From assembly GCA_003153315.1 (NCBI GenBank), contig PLYA01000036.1, positions 205,858 to 237,857 on the forward strand: 32,000 nucleotides of DNA, read 5' to 3'. Below are positions 2,362 to 26,402 of this stretch, piece by piece. Under the pieces are notes generated by a model, which was not told the origin of the DNA, ran no database searches, and saw only the letters and a program-made list of their open reading frames with translations. A program made the position numbers and the translations under genes. The stretch is from Bacteroidota bacterium (GTDB lineage: Bacteria; Bacteroidota; Bacteroidia; B-17B0; Aurantibacillaceae). How positions within the stretch are numbered: the first letter of the stretch is position 1; each line of letters starts with the position of its first letter.

Positions 2362-4428
2362 TTATTTATCACTCGGCGCATCTTCAATTTTATCTGCGTC
2401 TTCTTCATTCAATACTTTAGGGTGATATTTAGGAATATCTGTTTTAGGCGCTTTAGGATCTACATAATCCCAACTGATAATTTTAAATACTGTACGACGG
2501 TTTAACTGGTGCAAAGCTTCTTTTTCTTCTTTTGTTTTTGCTTTTGTTATTTGAGCATCCGTAATTTTTAATTTTCTTTTGCCATAACCTTTTGCAACCA
2601 TACGTTCTACAGGTATTCCTTTAGAAACTAAATAATCAACACAAGATTGCGCACGTGCCTGAGATAATTTTTCGTTTAAAGCTGCATTACCACGACTATC
2701 TGTATGCGCACTTAACTCAATGATAATAGTTGGGTTATCTGTTAAGGTTTTAAATAAGAAATTAAGCGAGTCTTTTGATTCAGGCTTCAAATCTGCTTTA
2801 CCCAATTCGTACTGAACGGCAGGGAAACGAATTTCTCCTTCGGGTACCGGCTTTAATTCAAAATCTTTTTTAAAGTTGGTAGATTCCATAATATCAATCG
2901 TGCTGAATTTTCCTTTGTCTTCTGATGCAAAGAAACTTCTTGGCGCGGTTGGTGTTTTTAAATCTTTATTGGTTTGCGTGTAAATCTCATAAGAAACCTG
3001 TGGTTTTAAAGGAAGCGTATAGGCACCGTCTTTATCGGTAGTAACCTGTGCCAATGTTCCGTCAGAACCTTTAATGATAATAGGGCAATTAGGAATAACC
3101 GTTTTATCTTCCATGTTTGTAACAACACCCGACGCGTTGAACACTAATGGTGGAAGATAGAAAGACCAAATATCATCTTCTCCTTTGCCACCTTCTCTAT
3201 CAGAAGATAGATAACCGCGGTCTTTATTTCCATCATAAATAATTCCAAAATCATCATGCGGAGAATTCATCGGGTATTTTAAGTTCTCTGCCTGTCCGCT
3301 AAAACTACCGTCTTTAGCTGCCACAATTTTGTAGATATCCAATCCGCCCATACCAAGCATAGCATCGGAAGAGAAAAATAAGGTTTTGTTATCGGCATGC
3401 ATATAAGGGAAACCTTCGTTACCGGCTGTGTTAACTGATGCGCCTAAGTTAACAGGCTGACCCCAAGCTTTATCTTTTTTAGAGAATGTGCTTTTCCAGA
3501 TATCATAATGTCCTTTTCCACCGGTCATGTTAGATGAGAAATACAAAGTACCTCCATCAGGAGAAAGGGCCGGGTTGTTGAACTGAAAGCTATCAATATC
3601 AAAAGAGATAGGGGTTGGTTCTGCCCAACTTGGTCCTTGTTTGTTTGATATATAAAGCTGGCATTTCATTTGTTTCTTTTTGGCTTCTCCGCAACGGGTA
3701 AAAATCATAAAGGTTCCTTTTTTATCCACCACAGCGCAACCTTCGTTAACACCGCTGCTTATTGGAGGCCCAAGTGGTGCAGGTGTGCTCCACTTTCCGT
3801 CTTTACCAAGTTTTGTTTCAAAAATATCCGAGTGAAAATCGCCTGTTGTACCATCAGCCTTGCCATCGCCGGTAGCACCATCTCTGGTTGAAGTAAACCA
3901 TAAAGTAGAATTTTTCTTGTCGGAAAAAGCAGGAGAATAATCCGCTTCTTTGCTGTTTATCATGCCCATGTTGTCAATTTTATGACGGGTTGGGCTATCC
4001 ACCCATTTTTGAGCCAATTCGCAGGATTTAATCTCATCTTCTGCACGTTGGTCTGAGGGCACTTCTTTTTTGTAAGCTTCAAAAGATGCAATAGCTTCAT
4101 TATACAGTTTTTGCTCTTTTTTTATTTCTCCGATATAAAAATTACACTTAGGATCGGGGTATTTTGCAGCAATTGCCTTTTGATAAAAGGTTATAGCCTC
4201 ATTCAGGTCATTAATCTTGTGATAACAAACAGCTGTACGGAAAAGAATTTTTGCCTTTTTTTCGGCTTTTTTCTCTTTAACGTAGGCTTTTTTATACCAA
4301 TCGATGGCGGTAAAATATTCTTGTGCAATAAACGCATTATCAGCTTCTTTTAAAGTGTTTTTTTGGGCAAAACCATTCATAAAAACAGCTATCGTAAATA
4401 CAAGAGCCAGTGTAATTTTCTTCATCAT
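2362..4428 (-). CDS. OmpA-family outer-membrane/periplasmic protein with N-terminal TPR and PD40 (TolB-like beta-propeller) repeats
   Basis: Signal peptide MMKKITLALVFTIAVFMNGFAQ. TPR-like YFTAIDWYKKAY region. Repeated DYSPAFS / LYFSSN / LFFSSD PD40 motifs. C-terminal OmpA motif AHTDSRGNAALNEKLSQARAQSCVDYLVSKGI. Confidence 0.9.
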   Translation of the reverse strand: MMKKITLALVFTIAVFMNGFAQKNTLKEADNAFIAQEYFTAIDWYKKAYVKEKKAEKKAKILFRTAVCYHKINDLNEAITFYQKAIAAKYPDPKCNFYIGEIKKEQKLYNEAIASFEAYKKEVPSDQRAEDEIKSCELAQKWVDSPTRHKIDNMGMINSKEADYSPAFSDKKNSTLWFTSTRDGATGDGKADGTTGDFHSDIFETKLGKDGKWSTPAPLGPPISSGVNEGCAVVDKKGTFMIFTRCGEAKKKQMKCQLYISNKQGPSWAEPTPISFDIDSFQFNNPALSPDGGTLYFSSNMTGGKGHYDIWKSTFSKKDKAWGQPVNLGASVNTAGNEGFPYMHADNKTLFFSSDAMLGMGGLDIYKIVAAKDGSFSGQAENLKYPMNSPHDDFGIIYDGNKDRGYLSSDREGGKGEDDIWSFYLPPLVFNASGVVTNMEDKTVIPNCPIIIKGSDGTLAQVTTDKDGAYTLPLKPQVSYEIYTQTNKDLKTPTAPRSFFASEDKGKFSTIDIMESTNFKKDFELKPVPEGEIRFPAVQYELGKADLKPESKDSLNFLFKTLTDNPTIIIELSAHTDSRGNAALNEKLSQARAQSCVDYLVSKGIPVERMVAKGYGKRKLKITDAQITKAKTKEEKEALHQLNRRTVFKIISWDYVDPKAPKTDIPKYHPKVLNEEDADKIEDAPSDK

Positions 4429-17530: not shown

Positions 17531-18427
17531 ATGGCGGTCTGCGTTAGGCTAAAGCTTTTATTCCTCCTTTTCATTCCCTTCAGCTTCTCTTTCGCTCAAC
17601 CCTATGTAGATATTATTAATACAAGCGCCCAGTCGGTAAACACAACGTATTATAAAGACACACTTAAAAGTAAAAACCAAACCAACAACTATTACCTAAA
17701 CCTTACCGTTCCTTTAGTAATAGATTCTCAAAACACCATTATTCTTCGCTTCTATGGCGAGCAACTGCAATCAACTATTAAAAACAACTTATACCCCGAA
17801 ACCAACAACCTCTATTCTACCCTTTTATTCTTAGGCTTGCAGCACGAAACAAAAAACAAAAAGTGGAAAACCCTCGGTCTTGTGATGCCCAAACTAAGTT
17901 CAGATTTTAAGAACCCCATCAGCACTTACGATATGCAGCTGGGCGGCTATGGCCTGGTTACTTACGTCCATAACCCCAAACTAAAAATAAAACTCGGGCT
18001 TTATTATAACCGCGATTGTTTTGGCAACTTTTTTGTGCCGCTTGCCGGGGTAGACTGGCGCATAAGCGACAGGTTTCAAATGTATGGGGTGCTGCCCACC
18101 TCCTATCGGTTGGAGTTTGCCCTCATCAAACAAAAACTATACGCGGGTTTTGCCTTCAAATCCTATACCCGCTCTTATAGAATTAGCGATGCCAACCACA
18201 ACTACGTAAAAAATGCCGAACTACAGGCCAAGCTCTTTGTAGATGTGTACATCAAAAAACGCTTTGTGCTTTTTGCCGAATTTGGCAGAACTATTAATTA
18301 CAGTCCGCAGGCTTATGAGTATGGCACCAAAACAGAATTATTAAGTTACCCCATCTACACCAAAATACAGGATGCCTTTTTAGTGCAAGCCGGTTTAGCT
18401 TATAGGATACGGACTGATTTTAAGTAA
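17531..18427 (+). CDS. hypothetical secreted / outer-membrane beta-barrel-like protein
   Basis: ATG 17531 gives signal peptide MAVCVRLKLLFLLFIPFSFSFAQ. The mature protein shows an alternating beta-strand-like pattern. No family recognised. Confidence 0.65.
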   Translation: MAVCVRLKLLFLLFIPFSFSFAQPYVDIINTSAQSVNTTYYKDTLKSKNQTNNYYLNLTVPLVIDSQNTIILRFYGEQLQSTIKNNLYPETNNLYSTLLFLGLQHETKNKKWKTLGLVMPKLSSDFKNPISTYDMQLGGYGLVTYVHNPKLKIKLGLYYNRDCFGNFFVPLAGVDWRISDRFQMYGVLPTSYRLEFALIKQKLYAGFAFKSYTRSYRISDANHNYVKNAELQAKLFVDVYIKKRFVLFAEFGRTINYSPQAYEYGTKTELLSYPIYTKIQDAFLVQAGLAYRIRTDFK

Positions 18428-18522
18428 CCCCACTCCTAACAACCCTCTCTTAATTATATCTAAGTTTAAATTACCTGCCTTTTTATTTATTAATTTGGCT
18501 CATTACTTTGTGCTTATAAATT

Positions 18523-20109
18523 ATGGCATTGAAAAAAAAGATAAAAACTTCTTCTTCTGATTTTAAATCCGAATTAGAATTACATCTAAAAAAATTCTCC
18601 ACTAATCCATACTTATTTATTGGTTCAGGGTTATCGAGAAGGTATTTAAACTTACCGACTTGGCTTACTTTTCTTGAAAGCTTTTACTCTACATTAAACT
18701 TAGATAAGCAGTTTGAATATTATCAATCAAAGTCAAATGGCAGCCTTCCTTTATTAGCATCCATTATTGGAAACGAATTTCATGCAAAATGGTGGGAGCT
18801 TCCTGCTTTTAAGAATAGTAGGGAGTTATATAAAGATTTAGCCAAAGAAAACGAATTATCTCCTTTTAAGATTGAGATCGCAAATAATATAAGAAAGCAT
18901 TCCGTTCCAAATAAAGATTTTGAGGAAGAAATAAATCTATTGAAAAGCTCAGTAATAGATGGGATTATTACAACTAATTGGGATAATTTTTTAAATGAAT
19001 TATTTTCTGACTTCAAGCCTTATATCGGACAACAAGAACTTATGTTTGCTGATTCTTTTTCGGTAGGAGAATTATATAAAATACACGGTTGTTGTTCAAA
19101 GCCAAATAGCATAGTAGTAACAGAGGAGGATTATAAAAATTTCAATTCTAAAAACGCTTATTTAGCCGCAAAATTGCTTACCATTTTTGTGGAACACCCT
19201 ATTATTTTTATTGGCTATTCTATTTCTGATAAAAATATAACGGAATTTTTAAACTCAATTGTTGCGTGTGTAGATACAGAGAGCGTAAAAAAACTTAAAG
19301 ACCGTTTAATATTTGTTGAATGGTCGTCCAAAGCAACTAAAAATAAAATATCAGATAGTAATATTGTTCTTGCAAGCGGATCTGTCTTACCAATCAAGCA
19401 TATTGAAGCGCATAGTTTTAAAGAGTTATTCGAGGTTTTAGCAAGTTTAAAAAAGCGATTACCAGTTAAAATCCTAAGGCAATTAAGGGATGCGGTTTAT
19501 GATTTGGTAAAAACAAATAATTCGAGCAAAACAAAACTTGTTGGAGACTTATTAAATAATGAACATACTGAGGATATAGAATTTGTTATTGGTGTTGGCG
19601 CAACCTCTTTTACGGAACAGGGATATAAAGGAATAACCGCACTTGAAATATTAGAGGACGCAATATTAGAAAACAAGGATTTCGACTGTATAAAGCTGGT
19701 TGAACTTACAATTCCACAAATGATAAAAAGTTCTGTCTACTTACCTGTTTATAAACACTTAAGAAAGGCAAAACTTCTTGACGAAAAAGGAAATATTATT
19801 AAATCATATAACCATTCTGAAAAACTTATTGAGTTTTTAAAAACTAATAAGGTCGAAACCTATTATCCTTCGGATAGCTATGCAAGAAAAAGGTCTGAAA
19901 TTCGAAAAAAATATGGAACCGTTCAAAGCATAACTAGTTCATTCGATAAGGTACATGCATTATATTATATTCCTTTATTAGAAAAGGAAAACATAGATTT
20001 AAAGGATTTAAAGAAATTTTTAAAAGACTGTTTTAATGATGCTACAGTAAAAAAAGATACAACCTTTAAAAAGGTAGTTTGTCTTTATGACTATTTAAAA
20101 TACAATTAA
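18523..20109 (+). CDS. SIR2_2-type sirtuin-like protein with an unassigned C-terminal half (candidate NADase defence effector)
   Basis: Ordered SIR2_2 motifs: FIGSGLSRR (aa 32-40), ITTNWDNFL (Asn152), LYKIHGC (His188), IIFIGYSISD (aa 227-236). Residues from about 290 to 528 have no recognisable domain. The gene is visibly AT-richer than the flanking genes. Confidence 0.8.
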   Translation: MALKKKIKTSSSDFKSELELHLKKFSTNPYLFIGSGLSRRYLNLPTWLTFLESFYSTLNLDKQFEYYQSKSNGSLPLLASIIGNEFHAKWWELPAFKNSRELYKDLAKENELSPFKIEIANNIRKHSVPNKDFEEEINLLKSSVIDGIITTNWDNFLNELFSDFKPYIGQQELMFADSFSVGELYKIHGCCSKPNSIVVTEEDYKNFNSKNAYLAAKLLTIFVEHPIIFIGYSISDKNITEFLNSIVACVDTESVKKLKDRLIFVEWSSKATKNKISDSNIVLASGSVLPIKHIEAHSFKELFEVLASLKKRLPVKILRQLRDAVYDLVKTNNSSKTKLVGDLLNNEHTEDIEFVIGVGATSFTEQGYKGITALEILEDAILENKDFDCIKLVELTIPQMIKSSVYLPVYKHLRKAKLLDEKGNIIKSYNHSEKLIEFLKTNKVETYYPSDSYARKRSEIRKKYGTVQSITSSFDKVHALYYIPLLEKENIDLKDLKKFLKDCFNDATVKKDTTFKKVVCLYDYLKYN

Positions 20110-20110
20110 T

Positions 20111-20176
20111 GGGTTTGCAAACCCGCATACAAGATTACATCGATAATCCGCTTGCGCGGATTTGCAATCCGTGCGC
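20111..20176. repeat. REP-like hairpins centred on TTTGCAA
   Basis: gggTTTGCAAAccc (20111-20124). aatccgc-ttgc-gcggatt (20144-20161) overlaps gcgcggaTTTGCAAtccgtgcgc (20154-20176). Confidence 0.55.
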
Positions 20177-20189
20177 CTAAATAATAAAA

Positions 20190-21044
20190 ATGAAACAACA
20201 AAACGCCATACAACTATTCGAAGACAAAAAGGTAAGAACCCTTTGGGATGCCGAGCAAGAAAAATGGTACATATCCATTATTGATGTTATTGAAATATTA
20301 ACCAATACCGATAGACCCCGAAAATACTGGAGCGATTTAAAAACCAAACTTAAAAACGAAGGAAGCGAGTTGTCCGAAAAAATCGGACAACTGAAAATGC
20401 AATCTGCCGATGGAAAATACTACAAAACAGATGTAGCTGATACAGAGCAGCTTTTCAGGCTTATACAATCTATACCCTCGCCAAAAGCCGAGCCCTTTAA
20501 ACTATGGCTGGCGCAGGTTGCCAACGAGCGGTTAGACGAAATGCAAGACCCCGAACTTGGTATAGACCGCGCGCTGGAACAATACCTACTACTGGGCTAC
20601 TCCGAAAACTGGATAAACCAACGCCTTAAAAGTATTGAAATAAGAAAAGAACTTACCGACGAGTGGAAAAAACGGGGCTTAAAACAAGGGCAACAATTTG
20701 CCACCCTTACTGATATTATTACCAAAGCTTGGGCGGGCAAAACCACCAAAGAGTATAAGGTGTTGAAAGGTTTAAAAAAAGAAAACCTTAGAGATAACAT
20801 GACCAACACCGAACTTATTTTAAACATGCTTGCCGAAGCTTCTGCAAAAGATATTTCTCAAGCTGTAAACCCCAAGGGTTTTTCGGCAAGTAAAAAAGTT
20901 GCCGCACAGGGCGGCAATGTAGCCAAAGTAGCACGCAAAGAACTGGAAGCCAAAACAGGCAAAAAGGTGGTAACAGCCTTAAATGCAAAAGCCGTTTTGC
21001 AACAAAACAAAAGCGCGAAAAACCTGGGCACAAAAAAGAAATAA
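20190..21044 (+). CDS. Bro-N domain / DinD-like (DNA-damage-inducible protein D family) protein
   Basis: N-terminal Bro-N-like VRTLWDAEQEKWYISIIDVIEIL, then the conserved block DVADTEQLFRLIQSIPSPKAEPFKLWLAQVANERLDE. The C-terminal NMTNTELILNMLAEA region parallels E. coli DinD. Confidence 0.8.
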   Translation: MKQQNAIQLFEDKKVRTLWDAEQEKWYISIIDVIEILTNTDRPRKYWSDLKTKLKNEGSELSEKIGQLKMQSADGKYYKTDVADTEQLFRLIQSIPSPKAEPFKLWLAQVANERLDEMQDPELGIDRALEQYLLLGYSENWINQRLKSIEIRKELTDEWKKRGLKQGQQFATLTDIITKAWAGKTTKEYKVLKGLKKENLRDNMTNTELILNMLAEASAKDISQAVNPKGFSASKKVAAQGGNVAKVARKELEAKTGKKVVTALNAKAVLQQNKSAKNLGTKKK

Positions 21045-21048
21045 GTAA

Positions 21049-21098
21049 AACCTTAAACCCTCCTCACATAACTTTCGTTTATCATTCGCTCCACATCC
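21049..21098. repeat. left 50-bp direct repeat; detached copy of the 3' end of the HTH gene (21696-21956)
   Basis: aaccttaaaccctcctcacataactttcgtttatcattcgctccacatcc matches 21692-21741 at 47/50. Its reverse complement reads DVERMINESYVRRV*. Confidence 0.85.
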
Positions 21099-21123
21099 AA
21101 ACAACCAAACACAACTAATTATA

Positions 21124-21180
21124 CCCTTCGACAGGCTCAGGGTACGGAAGCCACTCGGTCGTTGAGCTTGTCGAAACGCC
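21124..21180 (+). repeat. REP-type long hairpin element (copy A)
   Basis: Stem ttcgacaggctca (21127-21139) / tgagcttgtcgaa (21163-21175) with one G-T position. A nearly identical copy lies at 21631-21686. Confidence 0.8.
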
Positions 21181-21218
21181 CGAAGCAAATAATAAAAAAT
21201 ATCCCTACTTTTATAATC

Positions 21219-21518
21219 ATGAAGGGCTATATGTATATATTACAATGCGCCAATGGGTTTTATTATACTGGCAGCACTATAGATTTAGGGCTTCGTATTA
21301 AACAACATCAGAATGGAGAGGGGGCTAATTTTACAAAAAAGCACTTACCCGTTGTTTTAGTTTATTTCGAAGAGTTTCAAAGAATTGATGAAGCATTTAA
21401 TAGAGAGAAACAAGTACAAGGCTGGAGCCGAAAAAAGAAAGAAGCATTAATTAATAGCGAGTACAACAAACTCCCCGAACTGTCTAAGAATTATACACAA
21501 TATAAAGCAGATGATTAA
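21219..21518 (+). CDS. GIY-YIG nuclease family protein (UPF0213/Slx1-like, about 100 aa)
   Basis: MKGYMYILQCANGFYYTGSTIDLGLRIKQHQNG...EAFNREKQVQGWSRKKKEALI contains the GIY..YTG, R, and E..K.W.R motifs. ATG 21219 is chosen because the track start at 21162 is a TTG inside the REP element. Confidence 0.85.
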   Translation: MKGYMYILQCANGFYYTGSTIDLGLRIKQHQNGEGANFTKKHLPVVLVYFEEFQRIDEAFNREKQVQGWSRKKKEALINSEYNKLPELSKNYTQYKADD

Positions 21519-21544
21519 TACTTTTGTCGTTAGTGTTAAGTTTC

Positions 21545-21686
21545 GGACGTTGAGCCCATTCAGTGGTCGTTGAGCTCTCGGTCATTGAGCTTGTCGAAAC
21601 GCCCGCTGTGAAAAACATGTTACAATTGTACCCTTCGACAGGCTCAGGGTACGGTTGCTCTCGGTCGTTGAGCTTGTCGAAACGCC
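21545..21686 (+). repeat. REP cluster: partial tandem copies (gtcgttgagc x3) plus full hairpin copy A' (21631-21686)
   Basis: acgttgagccc, gtcgttgagctc and gtcattgagcttgtcgaaacgcc, then cccttcgacaggctcagggtacggttgctctcggtcgttgagcttgtcgaaacgcc. Confidence 0.8.
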
Positions 21687-21691
21687 GAAAC

Positions 21692-21741
21692 AACCTTAAG
21701 CCCTTCTCACATAACTTTCGTTTATCATTCGTTCCACATCC
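21692..21741. repeat. right 50-bp direct repeat (functional 3' end of the HTH gene)
   Basis: 47/50 identical to 21049-21098. The reverse complement reads DVERMINESYVRRA*. Confidence 0.85.
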
Positions 21742-21956
21742 TCCACCTTATAATACACCTTTTTCCCAATCACAATATAAGCAACCTTCCCAAGCGTTCT
21801 CCAGCGCAATGCCGTTCGTTTAGATATGTTCATCAACATAATAAACTCCTGGTTATCAATAATTCCTTGTGGTCTGTTTTTGTTCACCACCTCCGGGTTC
21901 AAAATCTTTGCACCCCTGTACACTTCCTTTTTTACTAAAATCTGTTCCATCTGCAT
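21696..21956 (-). CDS. helix-turn-helix (HTH_17 / excisionase-MerR-like) DNA-binding protein
   Basis: NISKRTALRWRTLGKVAYIVIGKKVYYKVEDVERMI matches the HTH_17 pattern (TlyrWr..G.l....ig....y...dve) common in Bacteroidota mobile elements. Confidence 0.72.
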   Translation of the reverse strand: MQMEQILVKKEVYRGAKILNPEVVNKNRPQGIIDNQEFIMLMNISKRTALRWRTLGKVAYIVIGKKVYYKVEDVERMINESYVRRA

Positions 21957-22161
21957 TACATATTACAAACCTAAAACTACAAAATAATTAGCAACAAAAA
22001 GCTAAAAATTTTAGCAATTACCATAACCGCCTGATAATAATATTCTTAAAAAACAGGTTCAGCTAAAAGCCATATAGCGCCACATTGGGTCATCTCCCGC
22101 CAAAGGCAGCCGGCATGCGCCATACGCTACCAAGCCCTTGCAAAGCGCCTTGCTCCCACCC

Positions 22162-22169
22162 TACTTTTG
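22162..22169 (+). promoter_or_regulatory. candidate -7 promoter box (TAnnTTTG), with a possible -33 TTG at 22138-22140
   Basis: TACTTTTG matches exactly, with a TTG 21 nt upstream. If used, array 2 would be transcribed as a leader of roughly 0.46 kb for the 22641 gene. Confidence 0.3.
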
Positions 22170-22236
22170 CCAAGGGTTTTGATAATAAAAGCAAAACCGG
22201 AAAAAGAAATCTTACCAAAAAAACTTAAAAGTATGA

Positions 22237-22530
22237 CTGATTTTGCAAAACACCCACATGATTTAGCAAAAAGTGTAACCGGCTTAACAAATTGTACGGA
22301 CGATTTCTCAAAAAGTATGAGCGTGTTTAAAAATCATGTACCCAATTTTAAAAAACATCTGCATGATTTAGTAAAAGGTATAAACGATTTGATAAATCAG
22401 TTGAACGATTCATCAAATCTTCCGCACGACTTTGCAAAAAGCACGCAAGCGTTGCAAAAACATTCAACCGATTTGCGAAATCGTTTGCACGATTTACTAA
22501 AAAGTATGTACGTCTTTGCAAATCGTATAA
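22237..22530 (+). repeat. array 2: 14 head-to-tail direct repeats, exact 21-bp period
   Basis: Units start at 22237 + 21n. Examples: acgactttgcaaaaagcacgc, acgatttactaaaaagtatgt, ccgatttgcgaaatcgtttgc. Consensus aCGATTTgCAAAAAg + about 6 variable nt. No indels. Confidence 0.9.
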
Positions 22531-22640
22531 CAAAAAACATAAGAGCTGTTTTTTACAGGAATAAAAGTCCGCCGCGGCGCAAAAACGTAAACTTCATTTC
22601 TTATAACCTGATAATTATTAACTATAAAAAACCAAAAAAT

Positions 22641-23321
22641 ATGTCCAATCCAAAAGCAGCATTAAACATGCCCAATAAAATAGGCGATAAAATAATACGC
22701 GCCCAATCTATACAAACCAAGCTTACAGGAAACGCCAATTTCCCTGTTGGTAGTTGGCCTGCCAACATAGTAAGTTTAACCCAGTTTGGTACCGATGTTA
22801 CGACGCTAGTAACTACCGAAACGGCGGTTGTAAATAAAACAGGCACGGTGGCAGCACGAAACGCCGCTCTTACCGTAGTACTAACCGACCTGCGCGCATT
22901 AAAAACCATGGTGCAGGTAAAAGCCGATGCCAACCCGGCTAATGCAGCTAATATTATTATAAGCGCAGGGTTTATTGTAGTAACGCGCAGCAATCATAGT
23001 AAAAGGCAAAACCAGGCCTTAAACACCGAGGTACTTGGCACCGTATTGCTTACTGCCGATAAAGGAGGGCACCACGAGTGGCAAATGAGCAAAGATGGCG
23101 GAACCACCATTGTTAATCTGCCCGCTACCACTACCAGCATTACAAAAGTAACAGGCCTAAACCCGGGCGATGTATGGTATTTTAGGAACCGTAAAGTGAA
23201 CACTAAAAAAACCACTTATAACTGGAGTACCTGGCTTAAGTTAATTATAGGTCCGGGTGGAAAAACCACAGGAGGTGGAAACCAATCGGGTGTGGCTGGT
23301 AGTTTACCAAATACTTTATAA
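22641..23321 (+). CDS. orphan protein with helical N-terminal half and Fn3-like C-terminal beta-sandwich; module-2 gene
   Basis: ATG 22641 (MSNPKAALNMPNK). The C-terminal HEWQMSKDGGTTIVNLPATTTSITKVTGLNPGDVWYFRNRK...YNWSTW resembles an Fn3 signature. More GC-rich than the surroundings and has its own terminator. The track ORF extends upstream to 22167 through the repeat array (alternative ATG at 22233). Confidence 0.72.
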   Translation: MSNPKAALNMPNKIGDKIIRAQSIQTKLTGNANFPVGSWPANIVSLTQFGTDVTTLVTTETAVVNKTGTVAARNAALTVVLTDLRALKTMVQVKADANPANAANIIISAGFIVVTRSNHSKRQNQALNTEVLGTVLLTADKGGHHEWQMSKDGGTTIVNLPATTTSITKVTGLNPGDVWYFRNRKVNTKKTTYNWSTWLKLIIGPGGKTTGGGNQSGVAGSLPNTL

Positions 23322-23341
23322 ATACTATTTTGATATGTACT

Positions 23342-23375
23342 AAAAGCCCTGCAGTTCTTGCAGGGTTTTTATTTT
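23342..23375 (+). terminator. Rho-independent terminator
   Basis: Stem ccctgca (23347-23353) / tgcaggg (23359-23365), followed by TTTTTATTTT. Confidence 0.8.
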
Positions 23376-23394
23376 GCTCTTTGAAATATTGTGA

Positions 23395-23410
23395 TGTTTC
23401 ACGTGAAACT
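23395..23410. other. parS-like ParB-binding site 1
   Basis: TGTTTCACGTGAAACT matches 15/16 positions of the Bacillus-type consensus TGTTNCACGTGAAACA. The 14-bp core is a perfect palindrome. Intergenic. Confidence 0.6.
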
Positions 23411-23447
23411 ATTTAGATTAATCTCAAATTGAAACAGCGGGCAGCCC

Positions 23448-23522
23448 GACCAAACGCGGAGCAGTTTAGCCTCGTGTGTGGCAGATCGTTTGGTCTTGAC
23501 TTTTTGTTTCTTTTTCGTCAAG
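23448..23522. other. structured intergenic element (two hairpins)
   Basis: gaccaaacg (23448-23456) / cgtttggtc (23487-23495) and cttgac (23495-23500) / gtcaag (23517-23522). It translates to the LTFCFFFVKEK-type string seen in Bacteroidota repeat families. Confidence 0.35.
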
Positions 23523-23565
23523 GAAAAAGAAAAATGAATAAGGAAATAGTTTGGCTTATTTACTT

Positions 23566-23581
23566 TGTTCCACGTGGAACT
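23566..23581. other. parS-like ParB-binding site 2
   Basis: TGTTCCACGTGGAACT matches 14/16 to consensus. The GTTCCACGTGGAAC core is a perfect palindrome. It lies 2 nt from the stop codon of the methyltransferase gene (stop at 23584-23586). Confidence 0.55.
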
Positions 23582-23583
23582 AA

Positions 23584-24480
23584 TTAAACCTTTCTGAAAA
23601 TATAAATCTGGCTGGAGAATTCTTTGCCGGTTTTATTGGCCTTTATGTTGGATATTAAACCCCTCATAAAAGCACTTATTAGCTTATTAGAGCCTGTTTT
23701 ATACTTCTCGCTAAGCATACTCACATAAAAAGAATCGAACACCATGGGGAGAGTTTTTTCCAGCTTAAAGCCATTATCAGAAAATAGTTTGGTGACGGCC
23801 TTAGGTTCAAAGTGCCAAAGATGTCTTGGCAAATCGTAAGCCGCCCAAAACTCTTTGTAGTGTTTTGCATCATGACTCTCGGGGTTTGGAACCGCCACAA
23901 TAAATATACCTTTGGTCTTCAGGGCGTTCTTTAAGGTTAAAATAGTCTCCTTTAAATCGGGCACATGTTCCAATACATGCCAGGCAGTTACCACATCCAA
24001 ATTGGCAAACAAATGGCTGGTTTGCGCTTCCTCCAAAGAAGCTGATGCAGAAATACCAAACTTATCTGCCATCACCTTACGGGCAACCTCATCGGGCTCT
24101 ATGCCATAAGCTTCCCATTTATTGGTTTTGCAGGTGTTTAAAAAAGCGCCTGTTCCGGCACCATAATCTAATATCTTTCCGCTCTTTAATTTGCTATGTT
24201 GCATTACCAATTGCAGCTTCTTAATTAGGGTGTAAGATCTTACCCAATGGTATAGTTTATTAACCAACCCCTTCTTGGTATCTGAGTGAGAAATGTAATC
24301 CTCTGCCTTATAATATTTACCCAAATCAGCATCCTGGGGGCGGGGAGAAGTGAATTTAAAACCACAGTCTTTGCATTGCTTTATTTCAAAGTCTTGCTTA
24401 GAAACCGTGTAATCTTTACAAACTAAAAACGGCTCAATGTTAATTGAACCGCATATTAAACAAGTATTTATATTCTTCAT
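23584..24480 (-). CDS. class I SAM-dependent methyltransferase with N-terminal Cys4 zinc ribbon
   Basis: CLICGS...CKDCGF zinc ribbon and the ILDYGAGTGAFL SAM motif. The DVVTAWHVLEHV block is typical of Methyltransf_11/23-like enzymes. Confidence 0.85.
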   Translation of the reverse strand: MKNINTCLICGSINIEPFLVCKDYTVSKQDFEIKQCKDCGFKFTSPRPQDADLGKYYKAEDYISHSDTKKGLVNKLYHWVRSYTLIKKLQLVMQHSKLKSGKILDYGAGTGAFLNTCKTNKWEAYGIEPDEVARKVMADKFGISASASLEEAQTSHLFANLDVVTAWHVLEHVPDLKETILTLKNALKTKGIFIVAVPNPESHDAKHYKEFWAAYDLPRHLWHFEPKAVTKLFSDNGFKLEKTLPMVFDSFYVSMLSEKYKTGSNKLISAFMRGLISNIKANKTGKEFSSQIYIFRKV

Positions 24481-24489
24481 AATTCTAAT

Positions 24490-24505
24490 TGTTTCACGTG
24501 GAACT
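24490..24505. other. parS-like ParB-binding site 3
   Basis: TGTTTCACGTGGAACT matches 14/16 to consensus and is a hybrid of the half-sites of sites 1 and 2. It sits between the methyltransferase start and the mnmG stop, overlapping the stop codon by 2 nt. Confidence 0.55.
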
Positions 24506-26390
24506 ATCTGCCCATATAAACCATAAGTATAGAAACATCTGATGGGTTAATGCCCGAAATACGGGATGCCTGCCCAAGGGTTTGTGGTTTAATTTTCTTT
24601 AGTTTTTCTCTGGCTTCGGCAGATATACTTGACACCTCATCGTAGTTAAAATCGGGCCTTAGTTTTAATTCCTCCAGCCTTTTTAGCTTATCGGCATTCT
24701 CACTTTCGCGCTCGATATAGCCATCGTATTTCATCAAAATCTCAGCTTGTTCTATGGTCTCATTATTGTACATGGAAACATTTTTATCCAGCTCTTTACA
24801 GTACCTAAGCATATCCGGAATAGAAATATTAGGACGAGAAAGCACATTATAATACCTCATCTTTTGTGTGATAGGGGAGGAGTTTATACTTTCTAAAAAG
24901 GGATTTATCTCTGCCGGTTCAATACTATTGTTCTTAAAATAACTGATAATAGATTCTGCGTTCTTAATCTTTTCCTCAACTTTTTTCATTCGTTCTGCAG
25001 AAGCCAAACCAAGTTTATGAGAAATAGGGGTGAGGCGAGTATCGGCATTATCCTGTCTTAAAAGCAAACGATATTCAGAACGGCTGGTAAACATACGATA
25101 GGGTTCGTCGGTGCCTTTATTAACCAAATCATCAATTAAAACACCAATATAACCATCATACCTGTTAAGAATAAGGCTATCATTTTCGCTAATCTTTAAA
25201 TGGGCATTCATTCCTGCCATAAGTCCTTGACAAGCAGCCTCTTCGTAGCCTGTAGTGCCATTGATTTGTCCTGCAAAATACAGATTATCAATTAGTTGTG
25301 TCTCTAAAGTTAACCTTAACTGAGTAGGGGGGAAGTAGTCATACTCAATAGCATAGCCCGGGCGGAACATTTTAGCGTTCTCTAAGCCAGGTATTAATTG
25401 CAGCGCTTTGTGCTGAACGTCTTCCGGCAAGGAAGTAGAAAAGCCATTCAGGTAGATCTCAACTGTATCCCAACCTTCAGGTTCAATAAACAACTGGTGA
25501 CGCTCTCTTTCAGAGAAACGGGAAATCTTATCTTCTATAGAAGGGCAGTAGCGAGGTCCGCGACCCTGAATGCGTCCGGCAAACATGGGAGATTGCTCGA
25601 AGCCCGTTTTTAATATATCGTGTACCTGTTGGTTGGTATAAGTAATGTGGCAAGGCACTTGCTTTTTTGCGTTTGCACCCATAAAAGGAGAGGTTCCATC
25701 CAAATAAGAAAACTTATCGAGGTGTTCATCACCTTCCTGCAACTCTGTTTTAGAATAATCTATAGAACGACCATCCAAGCGAGGAGGTGTGCCTGTTTTC
25801 ATGCGTCCGCTTTCAAAACCAAGTGCAACTAATTGTTCGGTAATGCCGAAAGCAGCTTTCTCTCCGGTTCTTCCACCCGAGAAATTCTTTTCCCCTATGT
25901 GAATTAATCCATTTAAAAAAGTGCCATTGGTAAGTACAACCGCTTTAGCTTTGAACTGAATGCCCATTCCGGTAACAACACCTTCTACTCGTTTACCATC
26001 TTTGCTTATCAGTAAAGAGTTTACGGTATCCTGCCAAAAATCTACATTAGGTGTTTGCTCCAGCATTTTGCGCCATTCGTTAGCAAACATCATCCTGTCG
26101 TTTTGCGTACGCGGGCTCCACATAGCGGGGCCTTTGCTACGGTTAAGCATACGGAATTGTATGGCAGATTTATCGGATATAATACCCGAATAACCGCCCA
26201 TGGCATCAATCTCTCTTACAATTTGTCCTTTGGCAATGCCACCCATGGCGGGGTTGCAGCTCATTTGGGCAATGGTTTGCATGTTCATGGTTATTAATAA
26301 AACCTTTGAACCCATGTTGGCAGCAGAAGCGGCAGCTTCGCAACCGGCATGACCAGCACCAACAACAATTATATCGTAAGATGATTGCAT
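24504..26390 (-). CDS. mnmG: tRNA uridine 5-carboxymethylaminomethyl modification enzyme MnmG (GidA)
   Basis: YDIIVVGAGHAGCEAA FAD motif and GPRYCPSIEDK. Full-length similarity to GidA. ATG 26390 (MQSSYDII) is preferred over the TTG at 26405. Confidence 0.95.
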   Translation of the reverse strand: MQSSYDIIVVGAGHAGCEAAASAANMGSKVLLITMNMQTIAQMSCNPAMGGIAKGQIVREIDAMGGYSGIISDKSAIQFRMLNRSKGPAMWSPRTQNDRMMFANEWRKMLEQTPNVDFWQDTVNSLLISKDGKRVEGVVTGMGIQFKAKAVVLTNGTFLNGLIHIGEKNFSGGRTGEKAAFGITEQLVALGFESGRMKTGTPPRLDGRSIDYSKTELQEGDEHLDKFSYLDGTSPFMGANAKKQVPCHITYTNQQVHDILKTGFEQSPMFAGRIQGRGPRYCPSIEDKISRFSERERHQLFIEPEGWDTVEIYLNGFSTSLPEDVQHKALQLIPGLENAKMFRPGYAIEYDYFPPTQLRLTLETQLIDNLYFAGQINGTTGYEEAACQGLMAGMNAHLKISENDSLILNRYDGYIGVLIDDLVNKGTDEPYRMFTSRSEYRLLLRQDNADTRLTPISHKLGLASAERMKKVEEKIKNAESIISYFKNNSIEPAEINPFLESINSSPITQKMRYYNVLSRPNISIPDMLRYCKELDKNVSMYNNETIEQAEILMKYDGYIERESENADKLKRLEELKLRPDFNYDEVSSISAEAREKLKKIKPQTLGQASRISGINPSDVSILMVYMGR

Positions 26391-26402
26391 TTTTAAGAAG
26401 CG

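Follow-up and report, generated by a model that had tools for sequence, protein, structure and literature searches.

In the window, i.e., the whole stretch of 32,000 nucleotides analysed here, a small gene for a GIY-YIG nuclease stands among hairpins between two copies of the same 50 bp, one of which is the 3' end of a neighbouring excisionase-like (HTH_17) gene. The locus thus raises the question of how the nuclease gene came to this place and how the end of its neighbour came to be present twice. An earlier note on this DNA, made from its letters, had proposed that a nuclease cassette was inserted by a repair process that copied flanking sequence, or was captured together with the flanks of its donor site.

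Structure of the locus

A repeat search of the window detected, as the earlier note had described, two 50-bp direct repeats, X-left and X-right, identical at 47 of 50 positions (94%), and BLAST against the 4.14-Mb genome retrieved just these two copies of the 50-mer. The nested order X-Y-(GIY-YIG)-Y'-X that it had proposed was borne out as well: the X repeats enclose a 593-bp cassette that runs from a hairpin doublet (Y-left) through the 99-aa GIY-YIG gene and hairpin remnants to a second doublet in direct orientation (Y-right). Its reading of the two X copies also agrees with the minus-strand translations, that of X-right ending in ...EDVERMINESYVRRA*, the true C-terminus of the 86-aa HTH_17 ORF, and that of X-left giving LDVERMINESYVRRV*, detached from the HTH gene (Table 1). 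An assembler artefact is unlikely, given the three mismatches between the X copies and a 6,288-bp stretch spanning the locus that is identical in an independent ENA assembly.

Table 1. Features of the cassette locus, with positions numbered along the window.
Feature	Position	Strand	Remarks
Bro-N domain gene, 284 aa	20190–21044	+	Pfam PF02498, 1.3e-11; convergent with the HTH gene
X-left	21049–21098	-	Detached non-functional copy: last 46 bp of the HTH gene and 4 bp past the stop
Filler AAACAACCAAACACAACT, 18 bp	21099–21116	not assigned	A/C-rich
Y-left hairpin doublet	21117–21180	+	Folding z = -3.3
GIY-YIG nuclease gene, 99 aa, single-domain	21219–21518	+	Pfam PF01541, 1.9e-16
Degenerate hairpin-half cluster	21519–21623	+	Third copy of a 30-nt unit at 21574–21603
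Y-right hairpin doublet	21624–21686	+	Repeats Y-left in direct orientation (64 nt, 92%); GAAAC follows at 21687–21691
X-right	21692–21741	-	Functional 3' end of the HTH gene
HTH_17 (excisionase-like) gene, 86 aa	21696–21956	-	Pfam PF12728, 2.2e-6; intact despite the duplication

Within Y-left, the loop motif TTCGACAGGCTCA lies at nt 21127–21139 and its complement TGAGCTTGTCGAA at nt 21163–21175. The host patch consists of 5 kb of accessory DNA with a SIR2_2 gene, the genes for Bro-N and HTH_17 to either side of the cassette, and an orphan gene that carries a 21-bp array. Its neighbours are core genes, with tpiA, prmA and a DUF6268 gene at one end and a methyltransferase gene and mnmG at the other. 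The ORFs scanned included no integrase or transposase, no Rfam family matched anywhere in the window, and neither Y nor the cassette GIY-YIG gene was found again elsewhere in the 4.14-Mb genome.

The GIY-YIG nuclease

The cassette nuclease matched the GIY-YIG family (PF01541) with 60.6 bits against a cut-off of 22.6, the domain covering residues 2–74. Y6, R26 and E63 are unchanged throughout 33 homologues, and Y16 and H30 in nearly all of them; the AlphaFold2 model (pLDDT 87) has a GIY-YIG fold with the expected beta-beta-alpha-alpha-beta-alpha secondary structure. At the level of sequence, the nuclease is an intact and conserved GIY-YIG protein. The nearest solved structures, by phmmer and Foldseek, are UPF0213 proteins, followed by Slx1; phmmer retrieved BH0048 (PDB 1ZG2) with E = 9e-15 and EF2693 (PDB 1YWL) with E = 2e-10, and the identity with UPF0213/COG2827 proteins is about 39% over 81–93 residues.

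Two other GIY-YIG paralogues, with 41–49% identity to the cassette nuclease, are encoded in the genome. When the flanks of all these copies were compared, as the earlier note had proposed, duplicated flanks were seen at the cassette copy, and no hairpins or flanking repeats were found at the two paralogues. About 700 bp from one of these hairpin-less paralogues, near 176.9 kb on contig C52 of the same genome, lies a 21-bp-phased array (L002:597–836), whose period is also that of arrays in the window.

Empty sites in two relatives

Relatives that carry the HTH gene and are free of the cassette, which the earlier note had suggested looking for, were found twice, namely in a congeneric genome (G014) and in a metagenome lineage (L153/L154), each about 86–90% identical to the window. 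Both retain the Bro-N and HTH_17 genes and a single X, and the cassette is absent. Contig C53 of G014 is collinear with window positions 20245–26392 at about 89% identity, the sole difference being 643 bp that it lacks at the junction, where the stop of Bro-N and the body of the HTH gene are separated by a single X. L153 (Ga0302280_1000010, a 308-kb contig) and L154, found by a protein-based scan of metagenome contigs, show the Bro-N/X/HTH junction with one X and no GIY-YIG gene; an exact pattern scan of metagenomes for the X core gave no match. At the empty sites the Bro-N stop is ~8 bp from the HTH stop and the flanks are collinear with the window at 86–91% identity; the Bro-N orthologues of G014 and L153 are 84–89% identical, and the HTH_17 orthologues 86%.

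Relative to these two empty sites the cassette is an insertion, and the locus is direct evidence that nuclease-hairpin cassettes of this kind move. The lineages of the window, G014 and L153 are roughly equidistant (88–91% identity over the methyltransferase-mnmG stretch). The polarity of the insertion is suggested, and not fully proven, by the X copies, which resemble each other more closely than the lineages do, the numbers of differences being small.

Origin of the second X copy and junctions

X-left and X-right differ from each other at 3 of 50 positions, and each of them differs from the X of the empty sites at 5–6 of 50 (88–90% identity). An extra T and two substitutions are common to both window copies and are present in neither empty site; where the two copies differ, X-left departs once from X-right and both empty sites, and X-right has two private changes, both synonymous. 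Since the window copies are closer to each other than to those of the relatives, the extra X was made from resident, at most conspecific, DNA and was not imported with a foreign donor. This orthologue-like distance from the relatives speaks against capture of the cassette with its donor-site flanks, the second origin that had been offered in the earlier note, and so does the fact that no other locus of the nuclease clade adjoins an HTH_17 gene. As no other clade locus has such a neighbour, a cassette specialised for the ends of HTH_17 genes was also rejected, as was a conversion tract from a divergent donor in the HTH gene, whose identity to G014 (87–93% per 100 bp) is at the background level.

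At the left junction, X ends with ...CCACATCC and is followed by the 18-bp filler. Nothing corresponding to this filler is present at the empty sites, nor in related cassettes, which are homologous to the window cassette only from the first hairpin onwards. Y-left is shared by related cassettes in other contexts, and X is not; in the related cassettes L126 and L127, Y-left stands at the same distance from the ATG as in the window. The right junction reads ...GTCGAAACGCCGAAAC/AACCTTAAG, and the first 8 bp of the filler, AAACAACC, recur across it. This 8-bp junction repeat is only suggestive, the sequence being A/C-rich and a match of this length having been reached in 525 of 20,000 shuffles (2.6%, p about 0.03).

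The nuclease clade and its hairpins

More than 5,000 proteins are close homologues of the nuclease at E ≤ 1e-20, with at least 554 loci in species-representative genomes (68–81% amino-acid identity). Their hosts belong to many Bacteroidota families and to Thermodesulfobacteriota (Smithella, Desulfobacterales), and the members from the latter phylum nest at three places in the protein tree; the clade is patchy and horizontally spread across phyla. Many of the loci are placed in type I restriction-modification operons, with hsdR or hsdM on one side and hsdS on the other, or adjoin RhuM or ORF6N genes. The order hsdM stop, hairpins, GIY-YIG, hairpins, hsdS start, or RhuM/ORF6N neighbours, can be seen at L126, L127, L048, L041, L056 and others, and the called GIY-YIG products of L126 and L127 are longer (122 and 115 aa) and extend into the downstream hairpins.

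The nuclease genes of the clade are associated with a family of hairpins having variable stems and a conserved loop, TTCGR-N4-6-CTCA. This loop motif occurs at 300 bp or less from the gene at 67 of the 70 loci, 46 of which have it on both sides; although it was derived from the same 70 loci, the contrast between its density near the gene (7.1/kb) and farther off (0.18/kb), i.e., a ~39-fold enrichment within 300 bp, is still valid. In most loci with adequate flanks, direct repeats are present on both sides of the gene. On the protein tree, three variants of the loop form clusters across host families, with 9 changes against 28 in shuffles, a statistic inflated by the relatedness of the loci. 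The exact motif has 30 copies in the genome of the window and as many as 142 in a congener; the reversed control gave none in the window genome and 0–1 across genomes. A genome-wide link between the number of exact motifs and the presence of a close nuclease gene proved imperfect, because two genomes (G001 and G040) have many motif copies and GIY-YIG genes that are only distant or absent. Ownership of the hairpins by a RAYT was rejected, as no match to the Y1/RAYT transposase (PF01797) was obtained in the 100%-complete genome and control genomes did give matches.

In Leeuwenhoekiella palythoae (L092:2900–3360), the outermost hairpin stems recruit flanking bases: the stem GTAG-loop-CTAC includes the stop codon of the neighbouring gene, and CCAAC-loop-TTTGG runs into the conserved TTGGCACAAT. 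Loop-motif copies in the window genome likewise carry differing stems. The spreading unit may be the loop of 13–15 nt rather than the whole hairpin. In Flavobacterium agrisoli (L049:2490–2550), the loop motif lies within the last codons of the upstream gene, so that insertion of the hairpin has remodelled the C-terminus of that protein. At L141 (G140:C1) and L101 (Cyclobacterium), the nuclease gene lies within a tandem array of at least nine hairpin-doublet units of ~94 bp each.

Long duplications in the clade

Most of the 70 loci lack a unique outer repeat; what flanks the gene there are hairpin-array units of 26–178 bp, and the gene itself is often embedded in a tandem hairpin array. Long duplications of unique sequence are uncommon in the clade, the one other clear case being L091, from a Crocinitomicaceae MAG, where a unique outer direct repeat of ~50 bp (2828–2876 and 3457–3506, 86% identical) encloses hairpins, gene and hairpins; the flanks of L091 were not found in the 40 relatives searched for an empty site. 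Weaker candidates for an outer repeat, of ~20 bp, are present at L081 and L100.

The comparison of filled and empty sites at L092 (Leeuwenhoekiella) showed that the cassette replaces an intergenic terminator, and no duplication was visible there, the intergenic DNA being too diverged. L051 and L068 have in common a cassette of ~830 bp (85–97% identity) in different contexts, with no unique outer repeat. As filled/empty pairs, L101 and L049 gave no clean junctions, with the gene in tandem hairpin arrays and variable regions, and L010 is a degenerate gene remnant adjoining other insertions. Beside its methyltransferase gene, G014 carries a gene-less hairpin doublet of 99 bp, which is a clean insertion with a repeat of at most 4 bp (CTTT) at its ends; a long duplication is thus not intrinsic to hairpin mobility.

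Comparison with known systems

Free-standing GIY-YIG homing endonuclease genes of phages (Seg proteins) spread by copying guided by homology on both sides, and their target is not duplicated. Presence and absence at one site between relatives and a plausible spread through break repair are common to these genes and the cassette. However, the window nuclease is chromosomal and consists entirely of the catalytic core, without a DNA-binding domain, and the filled and empty alleles that homing leads one to expect are accompanied by a duplicated target. The best matches of the nuclease in sequence and fold, the UPF0213/COG2827 proteins (BH0048, EF2693) and the nuclease domain of Slx1, are structural-genomics entries and a eukaryotic branched-DNA nuclease, respectively, neither of which is described with cognate hairpins or mobility.

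The closest published system is that of the Ssn nucleases and their NTS/SRM hairpins (SsnA of Neisseria meningitidis; Chenal et al., Nat Commun 2025, PMC11893778), GIY-YIG enzymes of 94 aa that cut single-stranded DNA beside the hairpin repeats flanking their own genes. Its authors remark that the layout resembles an insertion sequence, suggest domestication and raise the idea of present or past mobility; the paper documents neither an insertion nor an empty site nor a duplicated target, and does not use the word 'duplication' (PMC11893778). The statement of the earlier note that the mobility of such genes has not been worked out still holds, although the hairpin-gene-hairpin layout had already been published for Ssn (PMC11893778). 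Both systems have single-domain GIY-YIG proteins of ~94–99 aa and hairpins that lie on both sides of the gene and are dispersed elsewhere in the genome. They differ in the loop, here TTCGR-N4-6-CTCA, and in the nearest solved structures, here UPF0213 and Slx1, no Ssn structure being among the PDB search matches; the published SRM pattern HGTCWYN(0-2)YYVSBRHN(0-5)WNVSBRGN(0-2)RNCYNB is absent, with no occurrence in the window flanks or in any of the 70 loci and one in the whole genome. By protein size, single domain and hairpin layout, the nuclease-hairpin module may be regarded as Ssn-like.

In REP/REPIN-RAYT systems, a Y1 HUH transposase is paired with repetitive extragenic palindromes (cited in PMC11893778), and there too a gene is bracketed by hairpin doublets of one family that are dispersed in the genome. 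The cassette departs from these systems in that its genome has no Y1 transposase, its flanking copies are in direct orientation and its enzyme folds differently; in addition, some genomes are rich in the motif and have no close nuclease gene.

What is new here is the comparison of filled and empty sites together with a long duplication of resident DNA. The locus supplies a clean insertion event, in which one filled site can be set against two empty ones, the junctions are exact, 50 bp of resident DNA are duplicated and filler is present, and the spread of these abundant cassettes (thousands of homologues, often in restriction-modification operons) and of their hairpins becomes a testable question, for which the reconstructed empty site is a defined substrate for biochemistry. 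The clade represents a second nuclease-hairpin pair, distinct in sequence, which could serve as a tool for single-stranded DNA if it is Ssn-like.

How the duplication arose

It is firm that the cassette was inserted, that 50 bp of resident DNA were copied twice and that the HTH gene survived; the source of the breaks and the repair route we infer. The explanation that we prefer, and to which we give about an even chance, is that insertion of the cassette between Bro-N and HTH_17, two convergent genes, was accompanied by a doubling of 50 bp of resident DNA through repair synthesis, without a transposase. A horizontally spreading module of 593 bp (the 99-aa GIY-YIG gene and its cognate hairpins) would have entered between the two genes, with the 50 bp (the last 46 bp of the HTH gene and 4 bp past its stop) synthesised twice and one copy left on each side. 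This could have happened by either of two routes: the target strands may have been cut ~50 nt apart and the overhangs filled in once the cassette was joined, or a replicating end may have switched to the cassette as template and returned 50 nt behind its exit point, with an AACC overlap at the right junction. The left junction would have been sealed with the 18-bp filler. To judge by the analogy with Ssn and Slx1, the initiating break was probably made by the nuclease itself, which, if it behaves as the Ssn enzymes do, probably recognises its own hairpin loop on single-stranded DNA and makes the breaks that set off such insertions.

Repair synthesis is favoured by the filler DNA, by the rarity of long duplications in the clade and by the tiny or absent duplication at the gene-less hairpin insertion. 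A duplication of 50 bp does not fit an ordinary transposase, a view already expressed in the earlier note, and neither a transposase among the ORFs scanned nor a Y1/RAYT gene in the genome was found. Moreover, the usual features of an insertion sequence are lacking, as the sole ORF of the cassette is the nuclease, the end repeats are direct, and the duplication is 50 bp long and absent in most clade members. Of the repair-type, homing-like insertion which that note had advanced, repair gives the best fit, and classical homing would not have duplicated the target; the interpretation of that note as a whole is partly supported, the insertion being borne out and the capture of foreign donor flanks not.

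The ~50-bp outer repeat of L091, which counts against repair synthesis, could point to a stagger defined by the enzyme itself. The GIY-YIG nuclease would then nick the two strands ~50 nt apart, and joining and gap filling would leave a long target-site duplication characteristic of the element, as the sharp boundaries and resident sequence of the window duplication and the unique repeat at this second clade cassette would allow. GIY-YIG nucleases have one active site and nick sequentially. We consider this unlikely, since most of the 70 loci have hairpin-array units and no unique outer repeat, the filled and empty sites of L092 show no duplication, filler at the left junction would be unusual for transposition, and X, read by eye, has no match to the loop motif. 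It is quite improbable, in our opinion, that a 643-bp circle (the cassette and one X) from a conspecific locus recombined via X into a cassette-free chromosome, with the X repeats as attL/attR-like products of homologous recombination: the order X-insert-X is that of a single crossover, the X copies are resident-like and 50 bp of homology suffice for RecA, but the first X-cassette-X would still have to be made, which moves the problem one step back, no recombinase is found nearby, and HTH-like ends are present at no other clade locus.

A sequence of two steps, in which the 3' end of the HTH gene was duplicated in tandem and the cassette was then inserted between the copies with an 8-bp target duplication, would account for AAACAACC being the first 8 bp of the insert and standing again across the right junction. 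We hold it to be very improbable, as it requires an extra spacer of 4 bp between the tandem copies that is in neither empty site, the A/C-rich 8-mer is reached in 2.6% of shuffles, and the tandem intermediate was seen in no relative (empty sites of G014 and L153/L154). The least credible of these alternatives is that X-cassette-X is ancestral and that the relatives lost the cassette precisely by X-X recombination, the empty sites being secondary. Recombination between 50-bp direct repeats does restore a clean site, and G014 and L153 may be sisters, in which case a single precise loss could have given both empty sites; it is here, in the polarity, that repair synthesis of a newly inserted cassette is also open to objection. 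Against an ancestral structure stand the 3/50 differences between the X copies compared with 5–6/50 from the relatives, and the patchy, horizontally spread clade; moreover, it would alter only the date of the duplication and leave its nature unexplained.

Going beyond repair synthesis at this one locus, small GIY-YIG genes and their hairpins might be autonomous mobile elements of a new kind, in which the nuclease cuts hairpin or target DNA and replication-coupled repair copies the cassette in, leaving long target duplications of variable length. We regard this generalisation as doubtful; if true, it would amount to transposition without a transposase, with the target genes surviving through the duplication.

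Variable segments around the locus

Opposite window positions 18421–20179 (SIR2 gene region), L153 contains ~1.25 kb that could not be aligned with the window, and opposite 21949–23342 it contains ~290 bp in the place of the 21-bp array and the orphan gene. These non-aligning segments beside the conserved Bro-N and HTH_17 genes indicate that the small island is a mosaic between close relatives. In G014, the spacer that separates the orphan gene from the methyltransferase gene, opposite window positions 23409–23590 (L104, i.e., G014:C53, reverse strand, ~2590–2830), carries four hairpins with TTCGACARGCTCA-type loops, absent from the window; the cleanly inserted 99-bp doublet described above belongs to this spacer. 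Palindromes of the form GTTTCACGTGAAAC / GTTCCACGTGGAAC, at window positions 23395–23581, stand on either side of the variable spacer, and both G014 and L153 have kept them.
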